From Candidatus Nomurabacteria bacterium (lineage in GTDB: Bacteria; Patescibacteriota; Minisyncoccia; Phycocordibacterales; SBAW01): DNA of 64,000 nucleotides. The translations under genes were made by a program, and so were the position numbers. Positions 1-37,290 of the stretch are shown one piece after another. The stretch covers positions 92,994 through 156,993 of the forward strand of contig CALQYT010000001.1 of assembly GCA_943348815.1 (NCBI GenBank). Reading direction: 5' to 3'. Below the pieces are notes generated by a model. The model was given only the letters and a program-made list of their open reading frames with translations, was not told where the DNA came from and made no database searches. Numbering within the stretch: position 1 is the first letter of the stretch; every line of letters begins with the position of its first letter.

Positions 1-595
1 TCGGTTGGAAGATTTGGGATTGGCCCAGCATGTAATCCAGGGTGGGCGAAAAAAGTTTAGTGCCCAAGCACCCCAGCGTATCATTGCTTTAATAGACGAA
101 AAGAAATTGGCCGCGCAATCCATCGCCCGTGAGTTACAAAATCGCTTTGCCGGTGCCCCGGAGCAAAGTTTCGAGGTATTTCAAGGCGAAGATGCGTTTG
201 TGAGTCATGAGTTGGAGATGCTCCGACGTGTACCCGAGGGCTCGCGTATCGATGTCATTACCGGTCTAGAAGAAGATTATCTTTCTGCCATAGGTCATGA
301 GTTTGACGAGTACGAGCGGATACGTTTGGAGAGAAAGATTGAAATTCGTACGGTGTTTGTTTCAACCGGAGTGCAGAAGCAGAAACTTGAAAAGATGCTT
401 AAAGAAAGAAAACTTTGGAGTTATAAAATTTTTCCTGGCGCTGGCACTGGTGTTGTTGATATGGGTATTTGGCACGACTCAATTGTTTACAATATTTTTG
501 GCACCCCGCTTATTTGCTTTGCTCTTACCAACAAAAAAGTCGCGGATGGCTACCGCGACTTTTTCGAGGCTCTCTGGAGCGCATCGAGCAAATAA
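1..595 (+). CDS. TrmB-like winged-helix transcriptional regulator, 5'-truncated by window edge
   Basis: ORF runs off the window start. C-terminal region is a close paralog of the 1780..2544 product (shared ...FNIFG.PL.CF.LTNK..ADGYR.FFEALW... tail). Confidence 0.7.
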   Translation, partial: RLEDLGLAQHVIQGGRKKFSAQAPQRIIALIDEKKLAAQSIARELQNRFAGAPEQSFEVFQGEDAFVSHELEMLRRVPEGSRIDVITGLEEDYLSAIGHEFDEYERIRLERKIEIRTVFVSTGVQKQKLEKMLKERKLWSYKIFPGAGTGVVDMGIWHDSIVYNIFGTPLICFALTNKKVADGYRDFFEALWSASSK

Positions 596-1714
596 TTAAC
601 GAACGATAGATTCGATAACCCAGCTGCCACTTTCTACGTCACCGTCGTTATTGAATTGATACACGCCGCCGTAGCCTTGGTAATTTATTTTTCTTAACTG
701 TGCAGCTATGGCGTCACCGTCGCGGCTTGGGCTATTTTGGATGGCCTGTGCGAGGAGCATCAGCCCATCGTACGCGCGATCTGCGTAGGGGCCGGGTGCT
801 TCGCCATACTTTGTTTTAAACTTTGCTACAAAATCAGGCGAGACGGGGATAGAAACAAAGTACATATCTTTCAGTTCTTCTTTTGATACTGCATTGCGTG
901 AGAGCAAAGAATCGTACACGGTTGAGGCAACTACGACCGGTACCAAAAATTTTAATTCATTACGTTTTTTAGCCAAGGCAACCGCATCCGGATCAAATCC
1001 ACTCCAAAATAATATATCGGCGTTCACGTTTTTTGCTTTCAGCAATGCGGTGGCCATAAGATTTGCTGCATCGGGAGTACCGGACTGGAATGATTCGTCT
1101 AACACCACCGTGGCGCCTGCGTCTTTTGCAGCGGCGCGCATCGCTTTAGCGTTGGTGTCTCCCCAACCGCCCTTGAGTACAACAATAGCGATGCGTTTTT
1201 TATTGTTTTTTTGTAGCCACTCAGCAAGAGGTTGTTCCGAGAGTGCTACGCGCGGTGCGCCGCGGAAGGTGTACGGACTTTTAAAATTTGTATACTCGGA
1301 CGTATCGGCGGGTGCATAGCTCACTGTTTTGGCAGCAGCAATAACCGGGTCAGCCGCATCTTCTAAAAACTCCCATGCCGGCCCCACAATAGCGTTGGGG
1401 CCGTAACTCGTGAGTAGATACTGTGCTGCAGAAACCGATTGTTTAGGATCCGTCTTGTCGTCTTGATAATTGATGTCCACGACAACTCCCTTGGCAGCAA
1501 GATCTGCCTGCGCAAGGTCGAGGCCACGCTTCATATTTAAGGAGTCAGTAGCGGCAGGGCCCGTAAGACCGAGGATTGCGCCTATTTTTATAGATTCGGT
1601 TTTGTGCTGATTAGCCGACCACCCAAAAAAGCCGATCAAAACTACTAATACTAGAGCCCCTAAAGCGGTATATATCTTGTTCATGCCCAAAAAGTGTAGT
1701 GCAGTATGGATCAT
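596..1714 (-). CDS. LivK/type I PBP family substrate-binding protein with N-terminal TM anchor (likely true start MNKIYT near 1684)
   Basis: N-terminal hydrophobic helix, then IKIGAILGLTG; LivJ/LivK-like core. Close paralog of 31306..32400. Confidence 0.8.
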   Translation of the reverse strand: MIHTALHFLGMNKIYTALGALVLVVLIGFFGWSANQHKTESIKIGAILGLTGPAATDSLNMKRGLDLAQADLAAKGVVVDINYQDDKTDPKQSVSAAQYLLTSYGPNAIVGPAWEFLEDAADPVIAAAKTVSYAPADTSEYTNFKSPYTFRGAPRVALSEQPLAEWLQKNNKKRIAIVVLKGGWGDTNAKAMRAAAKDAGATVVLDESFQSGTPDAANLMATALLKAKNVNADILFWSGFDPDAVALAKKRNELKFLVPVVVASTVYDSLLSRNAVSKEELKDMYFVSIPVSPDFVAKFKTKYGEAPGPYADRAYDGLMLLAQAIQNSPSRDGDAIAAQLRKINYQGYGGVYQFNNDGDVESGSWVIESIVR

Positions 1715-1779
1715 TGGTCAATGATTCTTGACTACTAAATTATTGACCATATAGTATTGTTAAATAAAGCTAAAAAACT

Positions 1780-2544
1780 ATGCAGTCAAAAATAATTGAC
1801 CAAAATAAAAAAGCCCTTGAGTCGCTGCAGCAGTTGGGTCTTTCAGAAAAAGAAGCCCTGGTGTACTTTGCCCTACTCTCCCGCAAGGATGTAGGCTCTT
1901 CAAAGCTCGTGTTAGCCACCGGGTTGCACAAACAATTTGTCTACAATGCCCTCGCTCGGCTCGAAGAATTAGGTTTGGTAAAGCATATTTTGCAAAACGG
2001 CCGCAAAAAATTTAGTGCGAGCGCGCCAGGACGTATCCTTTCGCTTGCTGAGGAGAAGAAACTTATTGCACAAAACCTCGTACGTCAATTACAAGATCAA
2101 TATGTACAAACGGTCGAACAAAGCTTTGAGGTATACCAAGGCGCGGATGCGCTTGTGTCGCATGAGCTAGAAATGTTTCGCACTGCACCAATAGGTACCC
2201 GTATCGACGTGATCAACGCATTGCGCGGGCATTACTTTTCGTTGATTGGAGAAGAAAATGAGGAATACGAGCGAATCCGTGCCGAACGAAAGATATCTGT
2301 GCGATACATTGGTCCTGAGTCGGGTCGTGATGAATTTAAAAAGATGGAGAAAAACCGGGTGCTGTGGGAGTATCGCGCCTTCCCCGGTCTCTCGACTGGT
2401 TTAGTTGATATGGCTATTTGGCCAGAGAGTATTGTGTTTAATATTTTTGGCAAACCATTGCTCTGCTTTACTCTCACCAACAAAGAAATCGCGGATGGCT
2501 ACCGCGAGTTCTTTGAAGCACTTTGGAAAGTGTCGAGCAAGTAA
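1780..2544 (+). CDS. TrmB-like winged-helix transcriptional regulator
   Basis: N-terminal LGLSEKEALVYFALL...KLVLATGLHKQFVYNALARLEELGLV is a typical TrmB wHTH. About 170-aa C-terminal domain shared by the paralogs. Confidence 0.8.
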   Translation: MQSKIIDQNKKALESLQQLGLSEKEALVYFALLSRKDVGSSKLVLATGLHKQFVYNALARLEELGLVKHILQNGRKKFSASAPGRILSLAEEKKLIAQNLVRQLQDQYVQTVEQSFEVYQGADALVSHELEMFRTAPIGTRIDVINALRGHYFSLIGEENEEYERIRAERKISVRYIGPESGRDEFKKMEKNRVLWEYRAFPGLSTGLVDMAIWPESIVFNIFGKPLLCFTLTNKEIADGYREFFEALWKVSSK

Positions 2545-3651
2545 TTACTCCGCTTTTACGAATTGCCCTCCTTTGATAGTTTTTAAGACAAGATTTTTAA
2601 GAACGTCGCCGTGGTCGTCGAAAGAGATTACCCCTTCAGCACCTTGGTAATTTTTGAGGTTGTAAAAGTAATTTTTAATACACTCTGTGTTTACCCCGCA
2701 TTTAGTAAGTCCTGCCGCATATAGATTAAACGCGTCGTATCCCATAACTGCAAAGAGTCCTGGCGATCGATGATTAGCGTCCTTGAATGCTTGGGTAAAG
2801 CTCTTTGTCGCGTCGGTTGGAGAGACGTCATTAAATTCGTCAAGGAATATCAGACCCTCGGCGGCACTTCCACCAAGGTTAATCGTTTCGTCACCTATAC
2901 CACCTCTATACGCCGCAAGCTTTGCGCTAACACCCAGCTCTCTTGCCTGTTTTGCTATGAGCCCAGCTTGGCCCGGATATCCAGTCATCATAATGTAGTC
3001 CGGAGCAACGCTCTTTATCTTAGAGAGATACGTCCTAAAATCATTGTCGGTCTGCTTAAATGCATCTGCGGTAACTATCTGTCCGCCTAATTTCTCGAAC
3101 TGAGCACGGAAGTTGACGGCGATGCCTGTTCCCCAATTATCATTTACATGAAGGAGACTAATTTTCCGTGCACCGAAGTCCTTGTAGAGTTTGTCTGCAA
3201 GAGCTTTACTGTCGACTGAAGAATCGAGTTTAAGCCGAAACACATAGTCTCCAGCATCGCGCACCTCCGACTGTGCTGACCCAGTTGACATGACAAGGAC
3301 TTTTGCTGGTTCAGTGATTTTAGCGACAATCTCCGTCCAACATACATCACCGATGATAGCCTGAACGTGATCAATAGTTACCAGTTTGATGGCGGCATCG
3401 GTGGCTGCTTTTACATCACACTTAGAGTCTTCGTAGATAACTTCTATACTGTTCTTCCCATATTGTTTCTGGGCGAGCTCTACCCCAGCACGAACATCCT
3501 CACCGTATGAAGCGGAGGTCTGTGTCAAAGGTACAAGGACACCGATTTTGAGATTTCCAGAGTTTTCTGAATTAGGCTTTTGAGCAAAATACCAAATTCC
3601 ACCTACGGCAATAAGTACCACAACCAATCCAACGAACCATTTTGTGTTCAT
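2545..3651 (-). CDS. LivK-type substrate-binding protein, TM-anchored
   Basis: MNTKWFVGLVVVLIAVGGIWYF TM helix; LKIGVLVPLT, AIIGDVCW, type I PBP pattern. Stop abuts the regulator stop at 2544/2545. Confidence 0.8.
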   Translation of the reverse strand: MNTKWFVGLVVVLIAVGGIWYFAQKPNSENSGNLKIGVLVPLTQTSASYGEDVRAGVELAQKQYGKNSIEVIYEDSKCDVKAATDAAIKLVTIDHVQAIIGDVCWTEIVAKITEPAKVLVMSTGSAQSEVRDAGDYVFRLKLDSSVDSKALADKLYKDFGARKISLLHVNDNWGTGIAVNFRAQFEKLGGQIVTADAFKQTDNDFRTYLSKIKSVAPDYIMMTGYPGQAGLIAKQARELGVSAKLAAYRGGIGDETINLGGSAAEGLIFLDEFNDVSPTDATKSFTQAFKDANHRSPGLFAVMGYDAFNLYAAGLTKCGVNTECIKNYFYNLKNYQGAEGVISFDDHGDVLKNLVLKTIKGGQFVKAE

Positions 3652-3652
3652 A

Positions 3653-4759: not shown

Positions 4760-4790
4760 GGCTCTACCCTAACACAGCAACAAAAACGCG

Positions 4791-5913: not shown

Positions 5914-6723
5914 ATGGCTCTCTCTGGCAAGCTACAAAATCTCCTACAATTAGCACCGCATGAGGCGCGGGTGCTTGATGTGCTGACACCCAAGCCGCAG
6001 CGACCGAGCGAGGTCGTGCGTGCGGCGGGTGTGCCTAATGCTAGCGCCTACTTAGCATTTGATTTGCTTTGCAAACGCGGACTCGCCGAAAAGAAAAAAA
6101 TAAAAAATAAAACTGTTTGGTTGCGCGCCGCTCCCCTACCGATTGCCGAGGTGCTTGGGGGCGCCATCAACGAGCTTGAGCATTTAAAAAATTCTTCGGT
6201 GTTTGAGATTAAACACAAAGATGATACGAGCGTTACCATACACCGTGGAGGCGATGCGCTCCAGAAATTAATTTTTAGAGCTGTCGATTTAAATCCACAC
6301 GAGCGGTTTCATATTTTGCAGGGAGCTAATATGGACGATAGTTGGATGGAGATGGTTGGCTATCAAAACGTACTTATCATCAACCGCATGCTCAAGGCCA
6401 AAGAGATTATTGGCGAATCGTTTATCCCTGAAAATTATTTTAAAAATCTTCTGCCCTTTTGGGGGCGCGAGTGGGCCGAAAGTTATGTTGATAGGTTAAA
6501 TGTGGTGTACCTTATTCCGCCCGAATTTATGCCCTCGCATGCAGAAATAATTTTATTCCGCGATCGGGTACTCGTGCTGCATTTTAAAGAAGAAATCGCG
6601 GTGGAGATGAAGGATGCCGAAATGCTCTTGATGTTTAAAATGTTGTTTGAATATTTAAAAACTTTTGCGCGCAAGGTCGACCCCAAAGAGTTTTTGGCTG
6701 CTCACTTGCAGCAAACCAACTAG
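5914..6723 (+). CDS. divergent wHTH regulator, distant TrmB-like paralog
   Basis: N-terminal HTH-like segment (RVLDVL...PSEVVRAAGVPNASAYLAFDLLCKRGLA). C-terminal tail pattern LLMFKMLFEYL resembles the paralog tails. Overlaps the livG 3' end by 4 nt. Confidence 0.55.
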   Translation: MALSGKLQNLLQLAPHEARVLDVLTPKPQRPSEVVRAAGVPNASAYLAFDLLCKRGLAEKKKIKNKTVWLRAAPLPIAEVLGGAINELEHLKNSSVFEIKHKDDTSVTIHRGGDALQKLIFRAVDLNPHERFHILQGANMDDSWMEMVGYQNVLIINRMLKAKEIIGESFIPENYFKNLLPFWGREWAESYVDRLNVVYLIPPEFMPSHAEIILFRDRVLVLHFKEEIAVEMKDAEMLLMFKMLFEYLKTFARKVDPKEFLAAHLQQTN

Positions 6724-7454
6724 CGACCGAGATAAGCTTCGATTACTTTAGAATCTCGTAAAACCTCTTCGGGTGTGCCGTGGGCCAAGACTTTGCCGGA
6801 GTCTAAAACGTAGCAAGTGTCGGCCAACTCGCGCACCAAGGTCATATCGTGCTCGACTAAAATAACGGCAGCCCCCTTGTTTTTTAGCTCGTGCAAAATT
6901 TCTGAAACTATCTTGCGCATTTCGGTAAACAGGCCCGCAAAGGGCTCGTCAAAAAAGTAGATATTCGATTTCATGGCTATAGCACGGGCTATTTCAAGCA
7001 ATTTGCGTTGGCCGTAGGACAAGTTTTCGGCATGAGCCTCGCGCTTTTCCCACAAACCAACTTTCTTTAAAATATCCTCGGCTTGGTCGAGGTGAAATTT
7101 TCCATGCCTCTCAAACAACGCGCCCCACACGTTACGCTCAGTGAGTACAACTAAAATATTCTCTAACACTGAGAGCTGCCCTATTAGTCTTACATTCTGG
7201 AATGTCCGGGTAATTCCATAGCTTGCTATTTGTGAACGTTTGATATTTGTAAGTTTGACGGAGTCACTTATGACGACGGCTCCACCATCCATTGGCAGCA
7301 TGCCGGTGACGGTATTGATGAAAGTAGTTTTGCCCGATCCGTTTGGTCCAATGAGTGCCGTAATTTTTCCTGCATCAAACTCAACATCAACGTGGTCAAC
7401 AGCATGCACCCCGCCGAATCGTTTGACTAGCTGTTTGGTTGCAAGCGCGCTCAT
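6720..7454 (-). CDS. livG: branched-chain amino acid ABC transporter ATP-binding protein (LivG/LivF type)
   Basis: Walker A GPNGSGKTT, signature LSYGQRKLLEIARA, Walker B IYFFDEP. The only ABC ATPase of this type in the window. Confidence 0.8.
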   Translation of the reverse strand: MSALATKQLVKRFGGVHAVDHVDVEFDAGKITALIGPNGSGKTTFINTVTGMLPMDGGAVVISDSVKLTNIKRSQIASYGITRTFQNVRLIGQLSVLENILVVLTERNVWGALFERHGKFHLDQAEDILKKVGLWEKREAHAENLSYGQRKLLEIARAIAMKSNIYFFDEPFAGLFTEMRKIVSEILHELKNKGAAVILVEHDMTLVRELADTCYVLDSGKVLAHGTPEEVLRDSKVIEAYLGR

Positions 7455-11845: not shown

Positions 11846-11988
11846 ACGGCCACACTATGTGCTTGTTGGCAAGTATAGTCAATAGATTTTGACCAAAAAT
11901 AGGCTTATTTTAGAGCTTTTGAGGGCAATTTAGGTAGCGTGTTGTCAGACTCAATTGACAAAGTACATTTTAGCCTTATATTGCAAGG

Positions 11989-12729
11989 ATGGACCCAAAA
12001 GAGGTATTGGCCCGGGTGGGGGTGGCCGGCAAGGAGGGCGAGGTCTACCTCACGCTTATAGAGCTGGGGGAAGCAGCGCCCAAAGTAATAGCCCAAAAAG
12101 CGGGTATCAAGCGCCCCACCGCCTATGCAGTCCTCAGCGCGCTCGAGGCTAAAGGTCTTGCCCAAAAGGTGGTGCGCGATACCAAAGTGTTTTTTGCGCC
12201 GCATCATCCAGCCAAACTTTTGACCGACGCCGAGGTACGCCTGCGGGAGTTGAAGGAAACCATTCCGCAGCTGGAGTCGATGTTCCACAGCAAAGATCCG
12301 CGGCCGCGCGTCGTTATGTATCACGGCAAGCAAGCGCTCGACAAAGCCTATGACGAAATATTTTTGATGGAGGGTGAGGCGGTGGCGCTCAGCAACTCGT
12401 CTTTGGTACAAGAGTTGTTTGGTCGCACGTTGCAAAAACTTACGTACCGCACGTCGGCAAAGTTCCGCACGCGCGAGCTGCTCGACGACAGCGAAGCCGC
12501 GCGGCTGTATGCCGCGCGGCACGCTGGGCCCTATCGCCAAGCTCGCATCATGCCCAAGGAATTTATGCCGTTCGAAACCGACATCGCCGTGTGCGGCAAT
12601 ATCTCGCTCATCACCTCCGGCAAGAAGGAATTATTTACGGTTAAGATTGAGAGCCAAGAGATTGCGAACGCTTTCCACGCGATGTTCGAAGCGATGTGGC
12701 GGATCTCTGCGCCCGCGCTTAAGGAATAA
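11989..12729 (+). CDS. TrmB-like winged-helix transcriptional regulator
   Basis: GKEGEVYLTLIELGEAAPKVIAQKAGIKRPTAYAVLSALEAKGL wHTH; tail ...AMFEAMWRIS. Stop abuts the convergent SBP stop. Confidence 0.8.
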   Translation: MDPKEVLARVGVAGKEGEVYLTLIELGEAAPKVIAQKAGIKRPTAYAVLSALEAKGLAQKVVRDTKVFFAPHHPAKLLTDAEVRLRELKETIPQLESMFHSKDPRPRVVMYHGKQALDKAYDEIFLMEGEAVALSNSSLVQELFGRTLQKLTYRTSAKFRTRELLDDSEAARLYAARHAGPYRQARIMPKEFMPFETDIAVCGNISLITSGKKELFTVKIESQEIANAFHAMFEAMWRISAPALKE

Positions 12730-13917
12730 TTACTCCACCACAAACTGTCCATCATGTATCGTTTTGATTTGATACGTAAGATTGCTCAGTTGATGGGTCT
12801 GGTCGAACGAGAGCGTCTTAGTAACCGTACCAGGCAGCGAGGTAGTCTCCAGTGCTTTGGTAAGGTCGGTACCTGTAAGCCCCTTTTCGCCAAGAGCGAA
12901 TATAAGTATCTGCGCTGCATCATACGCATTGCTTGCACTCGGACCTTGCGGTTCGGTTTGATACTTGGCTACGTACTTTGCTTTAAAGCCGTCGTAGTTG
13001 CCTGAGACATCGGGGTAGGCATAGACCGCGCCTTCCATCCCGCTTGCAAAGTTTTGCAAGAGCGAGGCGTCTTCTATCTGCGAGCTGGTAAACAAACGAG
13101 CGGTAAGGCGCAACTCGTGAGCTTGTTTCATAAACGTGGCTTGCGCGGCCGGCGTCTTGAAGGATACAAACACCGCGTCAGGCTTAAGCGATTTGATCGT
13201 AGCGATCGTAGTTTTGTAATCGCCGTAATCAATAGGCAAGCGGTAATCTTTTAGTACTTCCAAGCCATGTGCGCTCGACTGTTGAGCAAACGTCTCGGCA
13301 ACAATGGCGCCATACGGGTCGTTGTCGTGCACGAGCACAATATTTTTTACTCCAACCTGGTGCATATACGCGCCGAGCGCGCTCATCTCACTCTCGACGG
13401 GGAACCAGGTCGAGAAGATATGCTCCACCGACAATTGGTTATCTACCAATGCCTTGAGTACTGCCGACGGTGCAACTGCAACAACTCCTTGCTTGCTGCT
13501 TAGCTCAAACCCAGCCTGAAAGCTGTCGCCCCAGGTAGGCCCAAGGATCGCCTCGACTTTATCTATACTGATCAACTTTTGTACGGCATTAAAGGTGCCG
13601 TCCGGGTCGCACTGCGTATCTTCGGTTTGAAGATCAACTGCGCGACCACTAATGCCACCGCGAGCGTTTATTTCGTCGATCGCAAGTTTGTACGACTTCA
13701 ACTCGCCCTCGCCCCACTCGGCACAGTCGCCACTAAGCCCGACCGCTGCGCCGATTTTTATCACGCCACTATTCTGATGATTCTGAGAAAACAAAACACC
13801 AAGCCCAAGCACGAGCAGAATGAGTATCCCGCCAAAAACAAGTTCCTTTTTCATAGGTTTATCGATAAGCGAATAACCCGTCAGTAGTGAGTATTTATAC
13901 GGAGAAAGCCCCTCCAA
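12730..13917 (-). CDS. LivK-type substrate-binding protein, TM-anchored (start probably MKKELVF)
   Basis: TM helix, IKIGAAVGLSGDCAEWGEGE, AILGPTWGDS. Confidence 0.8.
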   Translation of the reverse strand: MEGLSPYKYSLLTGYSLIDKPMKKELVFGGILILLVLGLGVLFSQNHQNSGVIKIGAAVGLSGDCAEWGEGELKSYKLAIDEINARGGISGRAVDLQTEDTQCDPDGTFNAVQKLISIDKVEAILGPTWGDSFQAGFELSSKQGVVAVAPSAVLKALVDNQLSVEHIFSTWFPVESEMSALGAYMHQVGVKNIVLVHDNDPYGAIVAETFAQQSSAHGLEVLKDYRLPIDYGDYKTTIATIKSLKPDAVFVSFKTPAAQATFMKQAHELRLTARLFTSSQIEDASLLQNFASGMEGAVYAYPDVSGNYDGFKAKYVAKYQTEPQGPSASNAYDAAQILIFALGEKGLTGTDLTKALETTSLPGTVTKTLSFDQTHQLSNLTYQIKTIHDGQFVVE

Positions 13918-16479: not shown

Positions 16480-17229
16480 ATGCAGAAAGAACTCCAGCTG
16501 TTGGGTCTGACTGAGACAGAGGCTGAGGTCTACGAAGCTCTGGTAAACCATGGTCCCTGTAAGGCGGGGGTTTTGATCAATAAATTGAACCTGCACCGCA
16601 CACTCGTCTATCGGGCGCTCGATTCCCTAGTCGCAAACGGCCATGTAACCAAAATAGTGCGCAATGGGGTGTGGCATTTTCAGATTTCGGATCCCGAAAA
16701 CTTCTTGATCAGTATGAATCGGCAAGAAACGGTCTTGGGGGAACTGACCAAACTTATTGCCGAGCGTCAGCACCGAGCCAGTTCGCAAATTGTCGTGTAC
16801 GAGGGACTTGCGAGCTACAAAAATTATTGGCTGCGTTCACTGGAGCGTTTGCCCGATGGCACCGTCGACTATATCGCCGGCGGCGAGATTGAAGTGTGGA
16901 CCAAACTGATGGGTAAACGCAAAGAAGAATATTTACGCCGGGTGCGACAAAAGAAAATGAGCTGGAAAAGTCTCTACCTCGATCCTCTGAGCGCGCACGA
17001 ACTAGCGTTGCTTAAAGAAGCGCGGGTACAAACCGAGTGTCGGGTGTGGGAGCCGGCTGACCCAAAGTTTTTTGGTAACTTTAATGTACTTGGGGACACC
17101 GTGATTTTGCAAACACCGGGTGAAAAAATGCCCCGCGTCATCGAGATGCGCGATGAGGCGCTCGTAAGAATGTTTCAGTCTTTGTTTGATCTGATGTGGG
17201 AGAAGGCAAAGCCGGTGGACCTTACGTGA
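16480..17229 (+). CDS. TrmB-like winged-helix transcriptional regulator
   Basis: LGLTETEAEVYEALVNHGPCKAGVLINKLNLHRTLVYRALDSLVANGHV; tail SLFDLMWEKA. Stop abuts the livM stop. Confidence 0.8.
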   Translation: MQKELQLLGLTETEAEVYEALVNHGPCKAGVLINKLNLHRTLVYRALDSLVANGHVTKIVRNGVWHFQISDPENFLISMNRQETVLGELTKLIAERQHRASSQIVVYEGLASYKNYWLRSLERLPDGTVDYIAGGEIEVWTKLMGKRKEEYLRRVRQKKMSWKSLYLDPLSAHELALLKEARVQTECRVWEPADPKFFGNFNVLGDTVILQTPGEKMPRVIEMRDEALVRMFQSLFDLMWEKAKPVDLT

Positions 17230-18102
17230 TCACATGCGGAAGGTTCCCATCAAGCCTTGCGGGCGGTAGAGCATAAGGAGAATGAGGATCAGGCCATAAA
17301 CCATCTGGCGCATTTGGGCGGCGACGTCTGGGGGGAAGCCGACGAAACGCAGCGCCTCGGGGAGCACGATGAGAAAGAGTGCGCCCATTACGGCTCCACG
17401 GCTAGAGCCAAGGCCGCCGAGAATTACAATCGAGAGCAAGAAGATCGATTCGTTGAGCGAGAAGGACGACGGATCGATAAAGGTGATGTACGAGGCAAAT
17501 AGTGCACCCGCTATGGCCGCAAGTGATGCGGAGATAACAAACGTAACCAATTTGTAATACGACGTAGCGTAGCCAAAAACTGATATTGCTTCTTCGTCTT
17601 CGCGCAGCGCCTTGAGTACGCGACCAAAAGATGATTTGGTAATAAAGGTTGAGATCCCATACACGAGCGCTAAAAATACGGCTGCAAGAATAAGAAAAGT
17701 AAGATTTTCGGAAAAAGTAAATCCAAACAGTGCGGGGCGTGCGATACCCGGGATGCCCAAGGGGCCGTGCGTTACATCTTGCCAGTTGAGCATGATGCTC
17801 CAAACAATGACGTTGAAACCAAACGAGCCAAGGGCGTAGAAGTCGCCCCTAAAGCGCGAAAGCACGAGGCCGATCAGCAAAGATCCAAACGCGGAAATGA
17901 TGATACCCCCCAGCAGCGCCAAAAAGAAGTTAATGTCGTAGTTGGTAATAAGTAGCGCTGCGCCGTACGCTCCCATACCGTAGAAAGCCGCCTGCGTGAC
18001 ATTAAGCAACCCCGCCTCCCCTATCACCAAGTTGAGCGAGAGGCCCAAGATGCCGTAGATGCAGACAAGGATCGCGATATGTATTAGGTATTCCATAATC
18101 AA
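17230..18102 (-). CDS. livM: branched-chain amino acid ABC transporter permease LivM (ORF track start is TTG; ATG MEYLIHIA about 6 nt inside)
   Basis: Multi-TM permease with the LivM-type conserved block ...VGFPPDVAAQ...RPQGL. Confidence 0.8.
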   Translation of the reverse strand: MIMEYLIHIAILVCIYGILGLSLNLVIGEAGLLNVTQAAFYGMGAYGAALLITNYDINFFLALLGGIIISAFGSLLIGLVLSRFRGDFYALGSFGFNVIVWSIMLNWQDVTHGPLGIPGIARPALFGFTFSENLTFLILAAVFLALVYGISTFITKSSFGRVLKALREDEEAISVFGYATSYYKLVTFVISASLAAIAGALFASYITFIDPSSFSLNESIFLLSIVILGGLGSSRGAVMGALFLIVLPEALRFVGFPPDVAAQMRQMVYGLILILLMLYRPQGLMGTFRM

Positions 18103-22016: not shown

Positions 22017-22781
22017 ATGCTGCCGCCTCTTAAAAAAGCCCTAGAAGTTTTAGACCTTAGCGATAAGCAAGAGGCTGTCCTTGGCGTCCTGCTGGAGAAT
22101 GGCCCTCTGTTAGTCGCAACCATTGCGCGTGGGGCAAAACTCAATCGCACCACCGCTTACGACATAGTTAAAGAGCTCGTCGATCTTGGGCTGGTTTCGC
22201 ATACTAAAAAAGACGGGGCTACGCGGTATCAGGCGCTTGCCCCGGAGCTCCTCCCCTCTTATATAGAACATCGTCGCCAGGTGCTTGAGGAGAGTAAAAA
22301 ACAGATCGAAGAGTTGGTGCCGCAGCTCAAACTTTTGCGCGCTAAAGGCAAATCGCTCCCCAAGGTGCAATTTTTTGAGGGGCTCGAGGGAGTTAAGCAC
22401 GCCTACGAAGACGTGCTCGAGAGCAATAAAGAAAAGTTTTTGCGCGGCATTACCGACATGGGTTCGGTGTACAAGGAGTTCGACGCTACCTGGCTCGACT
22501 ACTACCTTACAAAGCGGACACGGCTTGGCATCCGCTGCACGGATTTAGTACCTGAGGGTGAAGCCGGCCGTCGCAGCAAGGGTGATGACGAAAAATATAT
22601 CCGTACAACCAAGTTTCTTCCGCCCGACTACGACCTGGGCGGCGATATCAGCATTTATGACGACCGAGTCGCGATTTTTTCTTACGCACACGAAAGCCCG
22701 GTCGCGGTCATCATCGAGGACCAAACTATCTCAGGTATGCTGAAGAAACTTTTTGATTTTATGGAGACGCACTGCAAGTAA
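22017..22781 (+). CDS. TrmB-like winged-helix transcriptional regulator
   Basis: LDLSDKQEAVLGVLLENGPLLVATIARGAKLNRTTAYDIVKELVDLGLV. Sigma70-like TTGACG-17-TATAGC lies upstream (21917..21945). Confidence 0.8.
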   Translation: MLPPLKKALEVLDLSDKQEAVLGVLLENGPLLVATIARGAKLNRTTAYDIVKELVDLGLVSHTKKDGATRYQALAPELLPSYIEHRRQVLEESKKQIEELVPQLKLLRAKGKSLPKVQFFEGLEGVKHAYEDVLESNKEKFLRGITDMGSVYKEFDATWLDYYLTKRTRLGIRCTDLVPEGEAGRRSKGDDEKYIRTTKFLPPDYDLGGDISIYDDRVAIFSYAHESPVAVIIEDQTISGMLKKLFDFMETHCK

Positions 22782-22782
22782 T

Positions 22783-23922
22783 TTAGATCGTATAAGCCTC
22801 GGATTTGCCGTTCTTGATCGTCTTGAGCACGTACTCTTTGATTGCGTCACCGTTGCTGTCCATCGTAAGGGAGCCAGCGGCACCGACACGATCTTTTACT
22901 TGATACAGACACGCTTTGACTTGGTCAGCAGTATCGCCGCACTTGCCTATGGTTTCGAAGAGTATCTTTGCGGCGTCATAGGCTGAAGCTAAGTACACCG
23001 GAGGTGTGGTAGGATCTACCATTTTGTAGTGCGCAATGTAGCTGTCGAAGAAAGCTTTTGCCGCAGGAGCGTTTTGGTCAAAGACGACCTCGGTATAGAC
23101 AACGTTGTCGGCGAGGCCGGTTTTGAGTATCGAGGGGGTCGTTATAAGTTCGTTAGAGTATTTTGGTAAGGTGATACCGGCATTTTTTATTTGTTGAAGC
23201 AAAGCCTGTCCGTCTACCGGTCCACCCGGTATTAAGTAGAGAGCTTCGGCACCCGACACTTTGATTTTGGCGAGTAGTGTACGGAAGTCTTTGTTGTCGG
23301 TGACATAGCCCTCGGAGGCGACCACGTCTCCGCCTAGACCCTTATAAGTGGTTTCAAATACATTCCGCAATGCTTGTGCGTATTCATTTCGTACGGATAT
23401 AACGGCTACTTTTTTGTATCCGCGTTCTTTCATTGCTTGGGCGGCCTTGTTGCCCGAGGTCGCGTCAGAAGCAAAGCTACGGAAGACGTAGTCGCCTGCC
23501 CCTGTAATGTCGGGGCTACTCGATATCCCCGAAAAAAGTATGACGTGATTTTTTTCGGCAATGGGTGCTGCGGCAAGTGTTTCGCCACTGCATACTCCAC
23601 CCAGGATATAGTTGACCCCGTCGACGTTGATAAGTTTTTGTGCTGCGTCGGCGGCGGCTTTGTCGCACTGACCGTCTTCGTAAATCACTTCGACTTGGCG
23701 GCCGTTAATGCCGCCGGCGTCGTTGGTTTCTTGGACTGCCAGCATAACGGTTTGACGGACCGATTCCCCAAACGACCCAAGGTCACCGGTGAGCGGCGCA
23801 ATAAACCCAACTTTAATAGGGCCGGTTTCGGTCGGAGTCGTTTTTCCTTGCAAGAAGTACCACCCACCCACAACCACTACCAGCACGATGAGACCCAAAA
23901 TCCACTTAGCGGTGCTATTCAT
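22783..23922 (-). CDS. LivK-type substrate-binding protein, TM-anchored
   Basis: IKVGFIAPLTGDLGSFGE; GGINGRQVEVIYEDGQCD; ILGGVCSGET. Alignable with E. coli LivJ along the full length. Confidence 0.85.
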   Translation of the reverse strand: MNSTAKWILGLIVLVVVVGGWYFLQGKTTPTETGPIKVGFIAPLTGDLGSFGESVRQTVMLAVQETNDAGGINGRQVEVIYEDGQCDKAAADAAQKLINVDGVNYILGGVCSGETLAAAPIAEKNHVILFSGISSSPDITGAGDYVFRSFASDATSGNKAAQAMKERGYKKVAVISVRNEYAQALRNVFETTYKGLGGDVVASEGYVTDNKDFRTLLAKIKVSGAEALYLIPGGPVDGQALLQQIKNAGITLPKYSNELITTPSILKTGLADNVVYTEVVFDQNAPAAKAFFDSYIAHYKMVDPTTPPVYLASAYDAAKILFETIGKCGDTADQVKACLYQVKDRVGAAGSLTMDSNGDAIKEYVLKTIKNGKSEAYTI

Positions 23923-24836: not shown

Positions 24837-25219
24837 TTTTTAAAACAACAATCCCCCAGCGGGGTTCGCTAGGGGATTTCCTCCCCCCGTTAGTAGTATG
24901 TTTGGAGGGTAGGGTGTTTGTCGGTGCATTCAGAACCGGTTAATCAAGGAGCTGGTGTGCCTCTTGGTTTTATTTTTGTCGAAGTTTGGGAGGTACCCGC
25001 CACGCCGACTAATAGATTTAGAATGCGACAAACTGACATGTCTGACTGCCCGAGGAACTGGTGTTTAAACCGATTCCTACAGGGTGAAGGAGTCGCGTCT
25101 AAACTATTTTTATCTAAAGTAATAGTACAACGCTAAAGGACAGTGTAAAGGACATGGGTGGGGATAAGCCTGCCTGCCGGCGGGCAGGTAAAGGACAGTA
25201 GGCAAAAAACCTAGTCTAA

Positions 25220-25258
25220 GCCGACGTTTTAGTCGGCTCCCCGACCAAAGCGTCGGGG
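25220..25258. repeat. GC-rich double-hairpin miniature repeat (GCCGAC-N6-GTCGGC + CCCCGAC-N6-GTCGGGG)
   Basis: Near-identical (inverted orientation) to 53152..53190 and similar to 54760..54801. Confidence 0.6.
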
Positions 25259-25263: not shown

Positions 25264-26754
25264 TTAATCCACAAAGTATTTCTTTTGTATGTCCTTTATC
25301 TCCGCTTCTTCGGCAGCCTCCTTTTTTTCTTTACCCTCCTCCCCTATTGCTCGAAGGTCTTTGTCCGAAAGTTGGAGCAATTCTTTGGTCCGATTTTCCA
25401 AATACTCATCGGTATTTTTGGTCGGATCTTCCAAAACCTCTTCCAAAAGGGCGTGTAACACCCAACCGATACGAGGGCCGGCCTTCTCCCCCATCTGGAG
25501 AATACGCCCACCGTCTATCTTTAACATTCCTACGGAAATGGGGTCGCGCATAGCCTGCTCGATCATCGCTTGGTACTTGCGGAGGCGGAAAGGTTGCTCT
25601 TTGGGGCGCCCGGTACCGATGCGGTCGCAGATGCGGAGGTTAACGAGGTCCCAAATATGCTCTTTGCCCACGTTGGTGACGATCCGGCGCACCGCCGAGA
25701 GCGTTACGACGGCAGGGTCGCTAAAAAACATATGCCAGCGGACAAGGTTGGAGACTTTGTCGATAGTTTCGCGTGAAAACTTGAGGTCCTCGAGGTTTTT
25801 TTTGGTCATCCGGGCGCCTACCACATCGTGACCATGAAAGGTCCAATCTCTCTTTTCGTCCGACCAGCGGCGGGTCTTGGGTTTGCCGACATCGTGGAAG
25901 ACTGCAGCCAAGCGGACCAAGAGCGGCCAGTCTTTGTCGGCCGCATGTTGGAGCGTGCGAAGGTTATGCTCAAAAACATCGAAGCTGTGCGCTTGATTTT
26001 GTTCGACCCCTATCCCCTGCTCAAGTTCAGGGGCAATATACCGCAAAATACCTAATTTATGGCTTAAAATAAGGGCATTTTTAGGCTGCGTTGAGTTTAA
26101 AATCCGCACAAATTCATCGCGGATGCGCTCTTTAGAAATTTTTTCTAGCTGTGTTGCACAGTCACGCATGGCAGCCTCGGTGCGCGGCTCGATTTTGAAA
26201 TCTAGTTCTGCAGAAATGCGCACCGCGCGCAAAATACGAAGGGCGTCTTCGGCAAATCGCTCCTGCGGCTCCCCCACTGCCCGCACCCAACCTGCCGAAA
26301 TGTCTTTGATCCCGCCGTAGAGGTCGAGCAAGTCGCCACGCGAGGCACTATAGGCCATTGCATTGATCGTAAAGTCGCGACGCTTAAGGTCATCCTCAAT
26401 TTTTTGGCTAAAGACCACACTGTCGGGGCGGCGTGCGTCGCTGTACTTCCCTTCTAGACGGTACGGCGTCACTTCGATCACCGCCTTTGGCGGGACCCCG
26501 CCTTCGGCGGTGGCGACCACATCCTTAATTACTACCCCGACGGTGCCAAACTCATTGGTGTAATAGGTGTTCTCAAACAAGCCTTGAATTTGCTCTGGTG
26601 TGGCATTGGTCGTGACATCCCAGTCTTTGGGCGTGCGGTCAAGCAGCAAATCACGCACGCACCCGCCTACTACCCACGCTTCAAAACCCGCTTTTTCGAG
26701 CGTGCCGGTTACCCGGGTAACTTCTTGAGGTATTTGGCTGGGGCGCAACTGCAT
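25264..26754 (-). CDS. cca: CCA-adding tRNA nucleotidyltransferase with HD domain (start chosen at the internal Met so as not to overlap tRNA-Gly)
   Basis: Pol-beta NTase head (GGCVRDLLL...DWD), RRDFTINAMAY, HD domain (FHDVGKP...HG.). The ORF track's N-terminus overlaps a tRNA gene. Confidence 0.75.
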   Translation of the reverse strand: MQLRPSQIPQEVTRVTGTLEKAGFEAWVVGGCVRDLLLDRTPKDWDVTTNATPEQIQGLFENTYYTNEFGTVGVVIKDVVATAEGGVPPKAVIEVTPYRLEGKYSDARRPDSVVFSQKIEDDLKRRDFTINAMAYSASRGDLLDLYGGIKDISAGWVRAVGEPQERFAEDALRILRAVRISAELDFKIEPRTEAAMRDCATQLEKISKERIRDEFVRILNSTQPKNALILSHKLGILRYIAPELEQGIGVEQNQAHSFDVFEHNLRTLQHAADKDWPLLVRLAAVFHDVGKPKTRRWSDEKRDWTFHGHDVVGARMTKKNLEDLKFSRETIDKVSNLVRWHMFFSDPAVVTLSAVRRIVTNVGKEHIWDLVNLRICDRIGTGRPKEQPFRLRKYQAMIEQAMRDPISVGMLKIDGGRILQMGEKAGPRIGWVLHALLEEVLEDPTKNTDEYLENRTKELLQLSDKDLRAIGEEGKEKKEAAEEAEIKDIQKKYFVD

Positions 26755-26763
26755 TGCATTTTG

Positions 26764-26834
26764 TGCGGATAGGGAGAATCGAACTCCCGTCTCATCCTTG
26801 GCAAGGACGTGTTCTACCACTAAACCATATCCGC
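26764..26834 (-). tRNA. tRNA-Gly (anticodon GCC), no encoded CCA
   Basis: Reverse complement GCGGATATGGTTTAGTGGTAGAACACGTCCTTGCCAAGGATGAGACGGGAGTTCGATTCTCCCTATCCGCA folds as a cloverleaf. 7-bp acceptor stem, TTCGATT T-loop. Confidence 0.75.
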
Positions 26835-26901
26835 AGTTTCGAAATGAATATAGCATGCTTTTCTGTTAGGATTAAGCAGTCAGGCTAAAAGTGCAGATAA
26901 T

Positions 26902-27731: not shown

Positions 27732-27732
27732 C

Positions 27733-31305: not shown

Positions 31306-32400
31306 ATGAACAATAAATGGTGGGTGGCGGTTGTAATTTTGGTAGTCATCGGTGTCGGTATTTATTATTGGCAAAAAACGCCCCTGTCCTCTGGTGAAAA
31401 CATTAAAATTGGCGCAGTACTCAGCCTTACGGGGGATGCTTCTGTCGATGCGTTAAATATGCAGCGGGGGATAGAGCTTGCGCGCGGAGATTTAGCCGCA
31501 AAAGGAATTGTGGTTGACATACAGTATCAAGATGACAAGACTGATCCAAAGCAAACGGTTTCTGCGGCGCAGTACCTTGCTAGTACCTACCAACCCCAAG
31601 CACTACTGGGGCCGGTCTGGTCATTTTTGGCCGATGCTATTGCTCCTACTATTGCGTCCCAGAAAATTGTCACTCTCTCACCCGCGGTAACCACCGAATT
31701 TGTCAGTGCCCGCAGTCCGTATCTCTTTTTGGGTGGGATGAAAAACGAGTTGACGCGGCCAATCCTCGCCGATTGGCTGAAACAGCACAAGGTCATGCGA
31801 GTCGCTATGGTTACTGACACCAGTGCCTGGAGCCAGAGTCTCGCGAAACCTTTTAGAGAAGCAGTGAAAGACGCCGGAGCACAAATGGTGCTAGATGAAG
31901 ATGTATCACTGCAGGCAGATGCAAGCACTATCGCCTCGGTATGGTTAAAAGCAAAAGCTGCCAAGGCCGACCTTGTGTTGCGTACGGGAGGCGCCAGCGC
32001 GGAGACCGCTTACTTTGTACAAAAACGCGCAGAACTCAATCTGCCCGTTCCTGTTATATCTGCTTCCGCTAGTCTGTACCGGGATTTACTCTCTCGAGGA
32101 AGTATCTCAGCAGACAGCCTTAAAGATATATATGCCATTGACGCACAATTGTCGCCCGATTTTGTTGCCAAGTTTAAAGCAAAATATAACCAAGAACCGG
32201 GTAACTACGCGGACCGAGGTTATGACAGTTTGATGATAGTGGTAGAAGCTATCCGCAACGCGCCGAGCAAGGATGCCGATGCTCTTTCGCAGTACTTGCA
32301 CACGGCACTGCACTACCAAGGCTACGCGGGGACCTATGAGTTTGGTGAAGATGGGGGAGTAAAGGGAGGGGTTTGGATGATCCAGCCGATTATTAAATAG
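31306..32400 (+). CDS. LivK-type substrate-binding protein, TM-anchored
   Basis: IKIGAVLSLTGDASVDALNMQRGIELARGDLAAKGIVVDIQYQDDKTDPKQTVSAAQYL, near-identical block to the 596..1714 product. Confidence 0.8.
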   Translation: MNNKWWVAVVILVVIGVGIYYWQKTPLSSGENIKIGAVLSLTGDASVDALNMQRGIELARGDLAAKGIVVDIQYQDDKTDPKQTVSAAQYLASTYQPQALLGPVWSFLADAIAPTIASQKIVTLSPAVTTEFVSARSPYLFLGGMKNELTRPILADWLKQHKVMRVAMVTDTSAWSQSLAKPFREAVKDAGAQMVLDEDVSLQADASTIASVWLKAKAAKADLVLRTGGASAETAYFVQKRAELNLPVPVISASASLYRDLLSRGSISADSLKDIYAIDAQLSPDFVAKFKAKYNQEPGNYADRGYDSLMIVVEAIRNAPSKDADALSQYLHTALHYQGYAGTYEFGEDGGVKGGVWMIQPIIK

Positions 32401-32409
32401 AAATATTTT

Positions 32410-33522
32410 ATGCAAAAGTGGATTATTGGTGCAGTAGTTTTGGTGGTGGTCGTGGGTGGAGTTTGGTTGGGGACGCGGCAAAAGCAGGCGACGGGCAACC
32501 CTATTAAGTTGGGGGCGAGCATATCGCTTACGGGCGTTGCGTCGGCCTTCGGCGAGATGTCCAAAGACGGCATCGAACTGGCGGTTAAAGAAATAAATGC
32601 TAATGGCGGCGTTGATGGTCGCCCGGTTGAGGTGGTGATCGAGGACGACCAAACTGATGGCGCTAAGGCAGTCGGTGTCTACCAAAAACTTACGAGCGTT
32701 GACCATGTCGACGCGATAGTCGGCACCAACTTCGATTTTGTGGCCAAAGCGCTGTTTGATGTGGCCAAAGGAGGCAACACGGTAATCGCAACACCCTCGA
32801 CTCCGCGCGTCGGGAGTTACTATGGCGAAAATGGTAATGCCTTCTTTATGATGGCGAACCTCGACGAGATCGTCGACAACTTTCGCAGTTATTTGGCGAC
32901 CCAAACGTATCACCAAATTGCTATCGTGCGCTTTGAGTCAGCCTTTGGCGAGGTGTTTGCGGGCCAGTTAAGCAAAATTGCCACCGACTCGGGGCATCCG
33001 GCGATTATAAACGAGACCTACAAACAATTTGGACTGAGTGACTTCCGTACGACTATACTACGGCTCAAAAATGCAGGCGCGGATCTGGTATTCCTCGACA
33101 TGATTGGGTCCGATCCAGTTACGTTTGTTACGCAGGCCAACCAACTTGGCTTTCATCCGCACTACTTAACGCACAACGGGCTCAATACGACGCTCGCTAT
33201 CAGGGGCGTGGATCCGAATCTCTTTAATGGCATTGTCGACTTGGATTGGAACGTGAGCACCCCGCAGTTTGTTGAAGCATTTACCAAAGCGTATGGCATC
33301 GCTCCGACCAACTCTGCTAACCGCGCATACGAGGCAGTGTATGTGCTTGCCGATGCGGTCGCGCACGCGCAGAGCCGAGTCGGTATCCCTGACTACATTG
33401 CACGAACGACCTTCAAAACTCCCTACAGCACGGTGAGCTTTGCCCCTGACCATTCAGCGGCACACACGGCGATTGTTTTGTTACAAATGAAAGACGGCAA
33501 ACTGGTGCCGCTTCCGCAGTAA
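32410..33522 (+). CDS. LivK-type substrate-binding protein, TM-anchored
   Basis: IKLGASISLTGVASAFGE; GGVDGRPVEVVIEDDQTD; AIVGTNFD. Confidence 0.8.
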   Translation: MQKWIIGAVVLVVVVGGVWLGTRQKQATGNPIKLGASISLTGVASAFGEMSKDGIELAVKEINANGGVDGRPVEVVIEDDQTDGAKAVGVYQKLTSVDHVDAIVGTNFDFVAKALFDVAKGGNTVIATPSTPRVGSYYGENGNAFFMMANLDEIVDNFRSYLATQTYHQIAIVRFESAFGEVFAGQLSKIATDSGHPAIINETYKQFGLSDFRTTILRLKNAGADLVFLDMIGSDPVTFVTQANQLGFHPHYLTHNGLNTTLAIRGVDPNLFNGIVDLDWNVSTPQFVEAFTKAYGIAPTNSANRAYEAVYVLADAVAHAQSRVGIPDYIARTTFKTPYSTVSFAPDHSAAHTAIVLLQMKDGKLVPLPQ

Positions 33523-33646: not shown

Positions 33647-33681
33647 TATCTATACCATCTAATCTAAACCAATTAAGCAGA

Positions 33682-33716
33682 GGGCCCCGGCACAAACCGG
33701 GGCCCTTTGTTTTTTT
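33682..33716 (+). terminator. strong rho-independent terminator
   Basis: GGGCCCCGG-CACAAA-CCGGGGCCC followed by TTTGTTTTTTT. Confidence 0.8.
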
Positions 33717-33765
33717 GGAGGTAGAGTACTTCGACATCGACGAAAGATAGACAGAAAGGGAAGCA

Positions 33766-35007: not shown

Positions 35008-35077
35008 TAGTTTTCGCGCCCGGGCTTTAGGCTCGGGCGCGGGGACTTTTTATAAATTTCTAAGTTAGGATTACTTT

Positions 35078-36196: not shown

Positions 36197-36208
36197 AAAT
36201 CTAAAATT

Positions 36209-36559
36209 ATGTACGAAGCTTATGTGGCCCGCAAAAAAGATGCCAAAGTTTACGATATCCCCGGCGGATCGGTGTGCACGCTCTACGCCGACAGCCCGGT
36301 GGGCAACTTGTCGTGCGCCTATGTTGAGACAGATGGCCGCTATCCGGCAGAAGGCAGCCGCAAAAATATCGTGTGTACTGAAGCCACGTTTGTGATCGAA
36401 GGTTCGATGGAATTTACGTTAGGTGATGAAAAGTTTTTGCTCGAAGCGGGCGATGTAATCTACGTGCCGGTCAACGTGCCGTACACGGTGGTGGGCAAAG
36501 GCAGGAGTTTGGTCTTTATTAATCCCAAGTGGGATTCGGCCCAAAACGTGGCGGTTTAG
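36209..36559 (+). CDS. cupin-domain protein
   Basis: Small beta-barrel pattern (EATFVIEGSMEF...GDVIYVP). 116 aa. Confidence 0.5.
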   Translation: MYEAYVARKKDAKVYDIPGGSVCTLYADSPVGNLSCAYVETDGRYPAEGSRKNIVCTEATFVIEGSMEFTLGDEKFLLEAGDVIYVPVNVPYTVVGKGRSLVFINPKWDSAQNVAV

Positions 36560-37290
36560 ATACGCTGCCAGAGCATCTCAAAAATTTCGCGAACCGTTTT
36601 GGCCACTTCTTCGTTTTCGATAACGATCCCCTGGAGGTTTTTAAAATCTTGCACGCGTACCACGTCGCCCACCGTATCGATCGAAACTTCTGAAGAATAT
36701 TGTTCGTAGGGTACGGTCTTCACTTTGCGATTGTGAGTTGCATCAAGCACGCGATATTCGTGTAGATTTTCGTGTAGGGGAGCAATGGCTCTGGTCGAGC
36801 CTCCTCCTTTTTTGATCTGAGCAACGTAATCTTTTTTAAAATAATCTCGCAGTTCTTTTGGTGCGTTGTGATCGGTTGCCCAAAATGCAACCGTCTCTTT
36901 TCCCTCCAAATCTTTGGCACGGTATTCCAAAATTTGTTTTATACCGGCGATACCTTCAAAATAAATTGTGTTTACTTTTGTGGCCTCGCCTTTGGTGAGC
37001 GCCAAAATTTCTGGCAGCTTTTTCTTGGCCAAATCGAGTCGCTCTTGTGCCAGTGCAAAGGCCTCTTCGGGCGGACGGGCGACATAGAGTTGCTTTTTCT
37101 CTCGCGGAATTTGCACCACCAGACCTTTTTTGATCAACTCTTCCAAAATTACGTACGTGGTCGGGCGTTTGAGCCCACTTTTGGTCGCAATAGAGTAGGC
37201 CGGTGCCCGCCCCAGCTGCAAAAGTGCCAAATAAACGGCTGCTTCTTTGTCGCTCAGCCCTAATAACTGCAGCGCGTCTTTCGTTTCCAT
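36556..37290 (-). CDS. TrmB-like winged-helix transcriptional regulator
   Basis: LGLSDKEAAVYLALLQLGRAPAYSIATKSGLKRPTTYVILEELIKKGLV; tail REIFEMLWQRI. 3' end overlaps the cupin gene by 4 nt. Confidence 0.8.
   Translation of the reverse strand: METKDALQLLGLSDKEAAVYLALLQLGRAPAYSIATKSGLKRPTTYVILEELIKKGLVVQIPREKKQLYVARPPEEAFALAQERLDLAKKKLPEILALTKGEATKVNTIYFEGIAGIKQILEYRAKDLEGKETVAFWATDHNAPKELRDYFKKDYVAQIKKGGGSTRAIAPLHENLHEYRVLDATHNRKVKTVPYEQYSSEVSIDTVGDVVRVQDFKNLQGIVIENEEVAKTVREIFEMLWQRI

Follow-up and report, generated by a model that had tools for sequence, protein, structure and literature searches.

The 64,000-nt stretch of DNA analysed here, referred to as the window, spans positions 92,994 to 156,993 of contig CALQYT010000001.1 (assembly GCA_943348815.1) from a Candidatus Nomurabacteria bacterium, a member of the Patescibacteria, or Candidate Phyla Radiation (CPR). 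Its first 24 kb consists of modules arranged head to tail, each made of a substrate-binding protein (SBP)/ATP-binding cassette (ABC) operon on the minus strand and a divergently transcribed gene for a TrmB regulator on the plus strand. Since every TrmB gene diverges from its own operon, which lies on its left, it is directed towards the tail of the module that follows, and the convergent junction falls between modules. The subject of this work is the junction itself: in most convergent pairs of the window, with or without a regulator, the stop codons of the two genes touch or share bases. The tight junctions are the following (coordinates in the window; plus-strand gene first, minus-strand gene second):

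593..598, TAA/TTA, 0 nt: TrmB regulator (plus, cut by the window edge, end at 595) and Peripla_BP_6 binding protein 596-1714 (minus)
2542..2547, TAA/TTA, 0 nt: TrmB 1780-2544 (plus) and binding protein 2545-3651 (minus)
6720..6723, CTAG, 4-nt overlap: TrmB-like 5914-6723 (plus) and LivG-type ABC ATPase 6720-7454 (minus)
12727..12732, TAA/TTA, 0 nt: TrmB 11989-12729 (plus) and binding protein 12730-13917 (minus)
17227..17232, TGA/TCA, 0 nt: TrmB 16480-17229 (plus) and BPD_transp_2 permease 17230-18102 (minus)
22779..22785, TAA-t-TTA, 1 nt: TrmB 22017-22781 (plus) and binding protein 22783-23922 (minus)
36556..36559, TTAG, 4-nt overlap: cupin 36209-36559 (plus) and TrmB 36556-37290 (minus)
38833..38838, TAATTA, 0 nt, no regulator: binding protein 37729-38835 (plus) and trypsin-like peptidase 38836-39942 (minus)
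40778..40783, TAATTA, 0 nt, no regulator: DUF3298/PdaC protein 40046-40780 (plus) and Vut_1 transporter 40781-41467 (minus)
49904..49907, CTAG, 4-nt overlap, no regulator: DHH/DHHA2 phosphoesterase 48990-49907 (plus) and NusA 49904-51091 (minus)

Two further pairs belong with them:

56551..56574, convergent overlap of 24 nt: PGK 55462-56574 (plus) and HIT protein 56551-56880 (minus)
Left flank of the window (10 kb), locus L083, 16371-18692, TAG/TTA, 0 nt: YcaO-domain gene and gene of a Xer-type tyrosine recombinase (integrase)

The initial annotation had described the first seven of these junctions, and both the mechanical list of open reading frames (ORFs) and a direct reading of the sequence confirm them all. 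Its count of seven is nevertheless too low, as the junctions 38835/38836, 40780/40781 and 49907/49904 and the 24-nt PGK/HIT overlap lie outside the range that it covered. The minus-strand genes faced in the seven encode Peripla_BP_6 proteins, the LivG-type ATPase, a BPD_transp_2 permease or TrmB. Pfam domains are present on 20 of 20 partner proteins, and the stops are read straight from the sequence. PF01978, the N-terminal winged-helix domain of TrmB, is found in five regulators of the window (1780, 11989, 16480, 22017 and 36556) with E values of 1e-10 to 3e-17. ORF 5-595 is the 3′ part of a 257-residue TrmB which starts left of the window and whose full-length form, in L083, has PF01978; the TrmB-like protein 5914-6723 stays under the Pfam cut-off for this domain (22.4 vs 25.6 bits). 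The start of the YcaO gene in the left flank is uncertain, as the call made in a second assembly (L084) adds 21 residues.

The 14 convergent spacings of the window are -24, -4, -4, -4, 0, 0, 0, 0, 0, 0, +1, +20, +68 and +427 nt. Tight spacings (-4, 0 or +1 nt) thus account for 10 of the 14 pairs, or 11 of 16 when the left flank is included, and no pair in the window or the flank falls between +2 and +19 nt. Exact abutment at 0 nt is the commonest state (6/14). A tetramer shared by the two stops, that is, a 4-nt overlap, is seen at three of the ten tight junctions; the other seven, at 0 or +1 nt, do not overlap in the strict sense.

The genetic code sets the limit that these junctions reach. 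Read along the plus strand, the last base of a plus-strand stop is A or G, and the stops of minus-strand genes appear as TTA, CTA or TCA. Because no stop ends in T, C, TT, CT or TC, opposed stops cannot overlap by 1 or 2 nt, and because no stop is the reverse complement of a stop, they cannot overlap by 3 nt. The smallest convergent overlap is 4 nt, through TTAA, TTAG, CTAA or CTAG, as follows from the code itself and has been described before (PMC2174442). With overlaps of 1-3 nt impossible, the tightest allowed states are +1, 0 and -4, exactly those observed. Beyond the stops, no motif or palindrome is common to the tight junctions. TAATTA is found at five of the seven 0-nt junctions (left flank included), as could plausibly result from the usage of TAA alone (p = 0.06), and stop-codon usage does not differ between the tight junctions and the rest of the window. 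Truncation of the C-termini of the abutting TrmB proteins was considered and is not seen: their tails past the LFExMW motif match in length those of paralogues with ordinary spacers.

The frequency of tight pairs was compared with that at the NusA neighbourhoods of relatives; the best 80 NusA loci all come from metagenome-assembled genomes (MAGs) of the Patescibacteria/Parcubacteria group, and the NusA of the window shares 88% identity with its counterpart in a 'Candidatus Nomurabacteria' MAG. In 79 related Patescibacteria loci (about 1.2 Mb), from 13 of 145 to 17 of 177 convergent pairs are tight, about 10%. Against this background, 10 of 14 has a binomial P of about 7e-8 (Fisher P of about 4e-7). 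The genes of the relatives were called with a simple purpose-written caller, which is noisy (it missed LivF in L087 before revision), so that the background figures are approximate; the contrast is large all the same. In the first 50 kb of E. coli K-12 (RefSeq annotation), the convergent spacers measure 152, 34, 193, 190 and 85 nt, and the whole E. coli genome has 58 convergent overlaps of any length (Lillo & Krakauer 2007, PMC2174442). In the window, the median spacer is 0 nt between convergent genes, 39 nt between co-directional ones and 92 nt between divergent ones, at an ordinary coding density of 91%. Only the convergent spacers have collapsed, and the compaction is selective, not global. 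The idea that tightness is a trait of all CPR bacteria was rejected, considering the background in the 79 relatives and the ordinary spacers at the loci of distant TrmB homologues.

The convergent spacers which survive in the window (+20, +68 and +427) and in the left flank (+35, with two hairpins) all have canonical intrinsic terminators, made of a GC-rich hairpin and a T-run. The terminators of the window are given here, followed by two hairpins that are embedded in TrmB genes:

24850..24878: intrinsic terminator hairpin in the +427 spacer, right after TrmB-like 24045-24836
25210-25249: second terminator in the +427 spacer, serving the gene of the CCA-adding enzyme
42269..42286: in the +68 spacer that separates TrmB-like 41507-42262 from the HU gene (42331-42603), a bidirectional intrinsic terminator, AATCCCCCGGAGGGGATT, with T-runs on each strand
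43350..43369, minus strand: terminator hairpin occupying the entire +20 spacer, its U-tract crossing the stop of the opposing gene 42637-43347
533..564, minus strand: embedded terminator-shaped hairpin GTCGCGG-7 nt-CCGCGAC (7-bp stem) with an A-run on one side and a T-run on the other, in the TrmB gene; z = -4.4
2482..2514, minus strand: paralogous embedded hairpin with a 6-bp GC stem, at the 3′ end of TrmB 1780-2544, past the binding-protein gene 2545-3651; z = -3.8

Packing to the limit extends to the terminators themselves: in the hairpin within 43345-43370, the right arm overlaps the stop of the minus-strand gene and the U-tract runs over the stop of the plus-strand gene.

A scan with a terminator consensus returned 33-39 hits per 20 kb, compared to 24-28 in shuffled sequences, and is mostly noise. 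The 84 nt downstream of ten stops at tight junctions were also folded and scored (z-scores), and eight of these ten 3′ flanks show no significant structure, with z between -0.9 and +0.4. The organism employs standard terminators but has none at the tight junctions, the embedded hairpins aside. The latter lie within the last ~20 codons of TrmB, 35-65 nt beyond the stops of the binding-protein genes 596-1714 and 2545-3651, and from their sequence they look like terminators placed inside the opposing coding sequence. Since the embedded hairpin is absent from TrmB homologues that are 50-58% identical, its function as a terminator is something that we infer. Both hairpins are encoded by the ADGYR(D/E) codons of the two paralogous TrmB genes and precede the TrmB stop on the sense strand, and they could also attenuate the TrmB mRNA unless melted by translation. 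Hidden terminators in the partner genes were considered as a general solution and rejected, being present at just these two paralogous junctions. A tblastn search with E. coli Rho found no match in the loci examined, which cover small parts of each genome, and nothing specific on termination or spacer architecture in CPR bacteria was found in the literature.

It had been proposed from the sequence that these junctions leave no room for a terminator, so that the transcripts must overlap. By geometry this holds if both genes are expressed, but it has to be qualified at 595/596 and 2544/2545 because of the embedded hairpins. As these lie 35-65 nt past the stop, termination there would occur only after the transcripts already overlap. 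From the geometry, we infer that overlapping transcripts are produced at the tight junctions.

These data are probably best explained by a 'terminator or nothing' architecture in one Patescibacteria lineage (CPR, class Paceibacteria), which would be a packing habit of the genome and not a switch linked to regulators. The sole possible function of a convergent spacer would be to house a transcription terminator. Where a terminator is retained, a short spacer would persist (20-70 nt, or longer with two terminators); where none is retained, deletions would shrink the spacer until the two stops meet. The stops would then act as a barrier, as any further deletion would cost a stop codon or C-terminal residues, and junctions would pile up there. 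Both transcripts would enter the coding region of the partner as antisense, which would end at an embedded hairpin (two cases) or through factor-dependent, collision-driven or unspecific termination. The 3′ overlap is most likely a tolerated by-product, not a designed coupling of a regulator to its target, and regulators would be frequent at the junctions merely through gene order.

The initial annotation had instead tied the architecture to the regulators, which is not borne out. In the ~76 kb available for this genome (window and left flank), seven of the nine convergent pairs with TrmB are tight, versus four of the seven without it (Fisher p = 0.6). The tight pairs free of a regulator are NusA/DHH phosphoesterase, SBP/protease, DUF3298/Vut_1 and YcaO/integrase, and regulator specificity was rejected as these pairs show the same junctions. 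TrmB most plausibly regulates the operon divergent from it, rather than the gene it faces; promoter-like sites and palindromes sit in the divergent regions, at 1728-1755 and 11955-11982 and, for a palindrome whose arms measure 12 nt, at 1715-1749.

The latter palindrome, TGGTCAATGATT-N11-AATTATTGACCA, overlaps the divergent promoters of the binding protein 596-1714 and TrmB 1780-2544, and is a candidate TrmB operator; the other divergent regions have palindromes of their own, which differ from it. A TTGACA-16-TATATT promoter (11955-11982, plus strand) ends 7 nt ahead of the ATG of TrmB 11989, which suggests that this mRNA may be leaderless. A perfect TTGACA-16-TATAAT promoter (14005-13978, minus strand) lies upstream of the binding-protein gene 12730-13917.

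Orthologous loci were inspected for the stop-to-stop junction. Neither its exact geometry nor the partner is conserved, and tightness is retained in near relatives only. The orthologue of TrmB 16480 in L103 (62% identical, one residue shorter) also faces the permease, with a 4-nt overlap versus 0 nt here, and two further convergent pairs of the L103 contig are at -8 and 0. In L101/L102 the orthologue (67%) overlaps a dienelactone-hydrolase (DLH) gene by 8 nt, and the neighbouring pair is at +1. Homologues of TrmB 1780 (50-58% identical) are at 0 and 0 in L088 and at -4 in L094/L095; two other loci have spacers of +395 (L089) and +52 (L093), both with hairpins. Two modes are likewise seen in near relatives which bear arrays, with spacings of 0, 3, 11, 15, 68 and 70 in L087 and 0, 0 and +49 in L088, where the spacers of ~50-70 nt are clear hairpins. 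At the loci of distant TrmB homologues (45-54% identical; L104, L106-L108) the spacers are ordinary, ~80-570 nt. The junctions outside the array vary too. The NusA/DHH spacing is -4 here, 0 in L018 and +40 in L014, and most relatives have a co-directional gene after NusA. PGK and HIT converge in ~18 relatives, with spacings of -24, -17, -17, -9, -9, -4, 0, 0, +1, +6, +8, +13, +24, +24, +32 and +101. Tightness belongs to this genome and its near relatives.

Several points weigh against a mere packing habit. This genome is sampled over only ~76 kb. It is not globally squeezed, with 91% coding sequence and unexplained gaps of 844, 564 and 438 nt, and a purely neutral deletion ratchet alone leaves the loss of convergent spacers only unexplained. 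Tightness is kept across orthologues that are merely 62-67% identical, and selection for tightness would look alike. In the pooled metagenomic relatives, 9 of 14 pairs that contain TrmB are tight, versus 1 of 22 others; this hints at an effect specific to the array or the regulator, but the organisms are mixed and the gene caller is noisy, so that the comparison is confounded. Lastly, at least one binding-protein gene, 12730-13917, combines a perfect consensus promoter with the lack of a detectable terminator ahead of its antisense run into TrmB 11989-12729, and the overlap at this junction may be non-negligible.

The last two points also bear on a different explanation, an excludon-like coupling, in which the absence of a terminator would be selected and the TrmB mRNA and the tail of the neighbouring operon would act as mutual antisense or collide, thereby linking adjacent uptake modules. 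The geometry compels the 3′ ends of the transcripts to overlap, one of the known excludon layouts consists of convergent genes with no terminator (PMC7154746), no hairpin stands between the perfect promoter of the SBP gene 12730-13917 and the TrmB gene into which it drives transcription, and the TrmB/SBP arrays of relatives stay tight (L088, L101, L103). However, unrelated housekeeping genes are joined in the same way (NusA/DHH, YcaO/integrase, DUF3298/Vut_1, SBP/protease), pairs with and without TrmB are alike in this genome, the partner that faces the orthologous TrmB changes among relatives (permease, DLH hydrolase), and the faced gene and the operon divergent from the regulator belong to different modules. 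Such coupling is therefore unlikely. If terminator loss were adaptive, read-through from an induced uptake operon would silence the repressor gene in the module next to it, through antisense pairing or collision of polymerases; about 16 binding-protein modules with a common ABC translocator would thereby form a cis-acting cascade or priority circuit, in a lineage that would end its convergent units by head-on transcription in place of terminators. We consider this scheme quite unlikely.

The window, from a small CPR genome, has 16 Peripla_BP_6 paralogues (in 596-23922, 31306-33522 and 37729-38835) and about ten TrmB-like regulators. Only a single LivG-type ATPase (6720-7454) and two BPD_transp_2 permeases (17230-18102 and 18581-19447) accompany them; it looks as if many individually regulated binding proteins supply one translocator. 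Between the two permease genes lies a gene for a 23S_rRNA_IVP/bAvd-like four-helix protein (18170-18541, minus strand), an arrangement that is kept in L103 (6238-6633). Proteins of the bAvd-like kind occur alongside diversity-generating retroelements, but we saw no reverse transcriptase in the window.

The initial annotation had proposed that the junction was copied with the module. In a fuller form of this idea, an ancestral tight array, in which the SBP operon and TrmB diverge, would have been multiplied by unequal crossing-over, junction included, and the recurrence would be historical. It is true that like modules are repeated head to tail, that the two leftmost TrmB proteins (60% identical) have a common C-terminus, the TAATTA junction and the embedded hairpin, and that the arrays of relatives are tight too. 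But the paralogues have diverged. Nine aligned TrmB-like proteins are 15-24% identical to the reference, with just two closer pairs (60% and 39%); all pairs but the 60% one are thus within 15-39%, and the 16 binding proteins of the array share 25-37% identity. Beside the 60%-identical TrmB pair, neither the facing nor the divergent binding proteins are similar, and the members of the 39%-identical pair differ in state, TrmB22017 having a +1 junction and TrmB24045 the +427 spacer with its terminators. The faced partners also vary (LivG, permease, cupin, and a hydrolase in a relative), and the junctions outside the array would remain unexplained. A recent duplication of modules that carried the junction along was rejected on the identities of the paralogues and the mismatch of their partners, and duplication in general is a very unlikely cause of the recurrence.

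Some CPR lineages recode UGA. That wrong gene calls, an alternative genetic code or misassembly produce the abutting ends is nevertheless practically negligible as an explanation, since the stop codons alone fix a convergent spacing whatever start is chosen, the Pfam domains of all partners reach their C-termini, TAA, TAG and TGA all serve as stops, the TrmB C-termini align with those of paralogues that have ordinary spacers, and the sequence is identical in three independent assemblies (two from ENA, one from Logan).

Some features of the window lie apart from the convergent pairs. The gaps mentioned above, at 52363-53206 (844 nt), 62626-63189 (564 nt) and 37291-37728 (438 nt), are odd in a genome where convergent spacers vanish, and small genes or unknown RNAs are possible there. 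No Rfam family reaches its gathering score in any of the three, and the search for a non-coding RNA in 52363-53206 gave no credible Rfam match; this gap has three strong promoter-like sites (52624-52794). A tRNA-Pro (from 27661) ends at 27732, and the ATG of the next gene is at 27733, with 0 nt between. The mechanical 5′ extension of ORF 25264-26856 contains a tRNA-Gly (26763-26834), so that the true start of this gene, which encodes the CCA-adding enzyme, must be further downstream.

To our knowledge, the CPR/Patescibacteria are uncultivated and their transcription termination is experimentally unexplored. As a convergent junction of this genome has either a canonical hairpin terminator or zero spacer, most convergent units would end without an intergenic signal. 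The architecture described here thus offers a handle on transcription termination in these organisms, and on the means by which a bacterium with a reduced genome copes with pervasive antisense transcription or restricts it. It also calls for caution in annotation and in regulatory inference, as a recurrent zero spacer beside regulators can stem from gene order and spacer loss. If the overlap did couple neighbouring uptake modules, it would represent a novel means of coordinating numerous substrate-binding proteins with a common transporter.

Short convergent overlaps are well known. Those of 4 nt, through CTAA, TTAA, CTAG or TTAG, are the modal class of convergent overlap, and about 20% of the E. 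coli genes in convergent overlaps have a terminator embedded in the opposing coding sequence (PMC2174442). Short convergent overlaps were also reported by Fukuda 2003 and by Johnson & Chisholm 2004, as cited in PMC10666635. The CTAG junctions at 6720 and 49904 and the TTAG junction at 36556 are of the kind described by Lillo & Krakauer (2007), the 0 and +1 states being the adjacent minimal geometries, and the presence at some partners of what would be an intrinsic terminator inside the opposing coding sequence resembles the E. coli overlaps. However, ~70% of the convergent pairs are at the limit here, versus ~10% in relatives, and the commonest state, exact abutment at 0 nt, is omitted from surveys of overlaps.

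The excludon concept (Sesto et al. 2013; reviewed by Toledo-Arana & Lasa 2020, PMC7154746) includes the case of convergent genes that have no terminator, drawn in Figure 3b of the review. The junctions of the window share this absence of a terminator, and the mRNAs would be partly complementary if both genes are expressed. An excludon, though, needs a demonstrated reciprocal repression, usually between functionally opposed genes, whereas here the partners are functionally arbitrary and the feature is generic to the genome, not to particular loci.

In Rickettsia prowazekii, which has a reduced genome, read-through at convergent pairs makes antisense RNA (Woodard & Wood 2011, PMC3027695). The present genome is similar in being small and of a host-associated type, with many convergent pairs that would lack site-specific termination and give rise to antisense RNA, but Rickettsia has kept its spacers, which are often long and degraded, while here the spacer itself is gone. 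In streamlined genomes such as that of Pelagibacter, functionless DNA is lost and neighbouring genes abut. The window departs from this type of streamlining by its coding density of 91%, its median co-directional spacer of 39 nt and its several gaps above 400 nt. Convergent overlaps of 4 nt and terminators embedded in partner genes are thus textbook knowledge; what is unusual here is the frequency of ~70%, the predominance of junctions at exactly 0 nt and the clear separation into two modes, in a genome that otherwise lacks extreme compaction.

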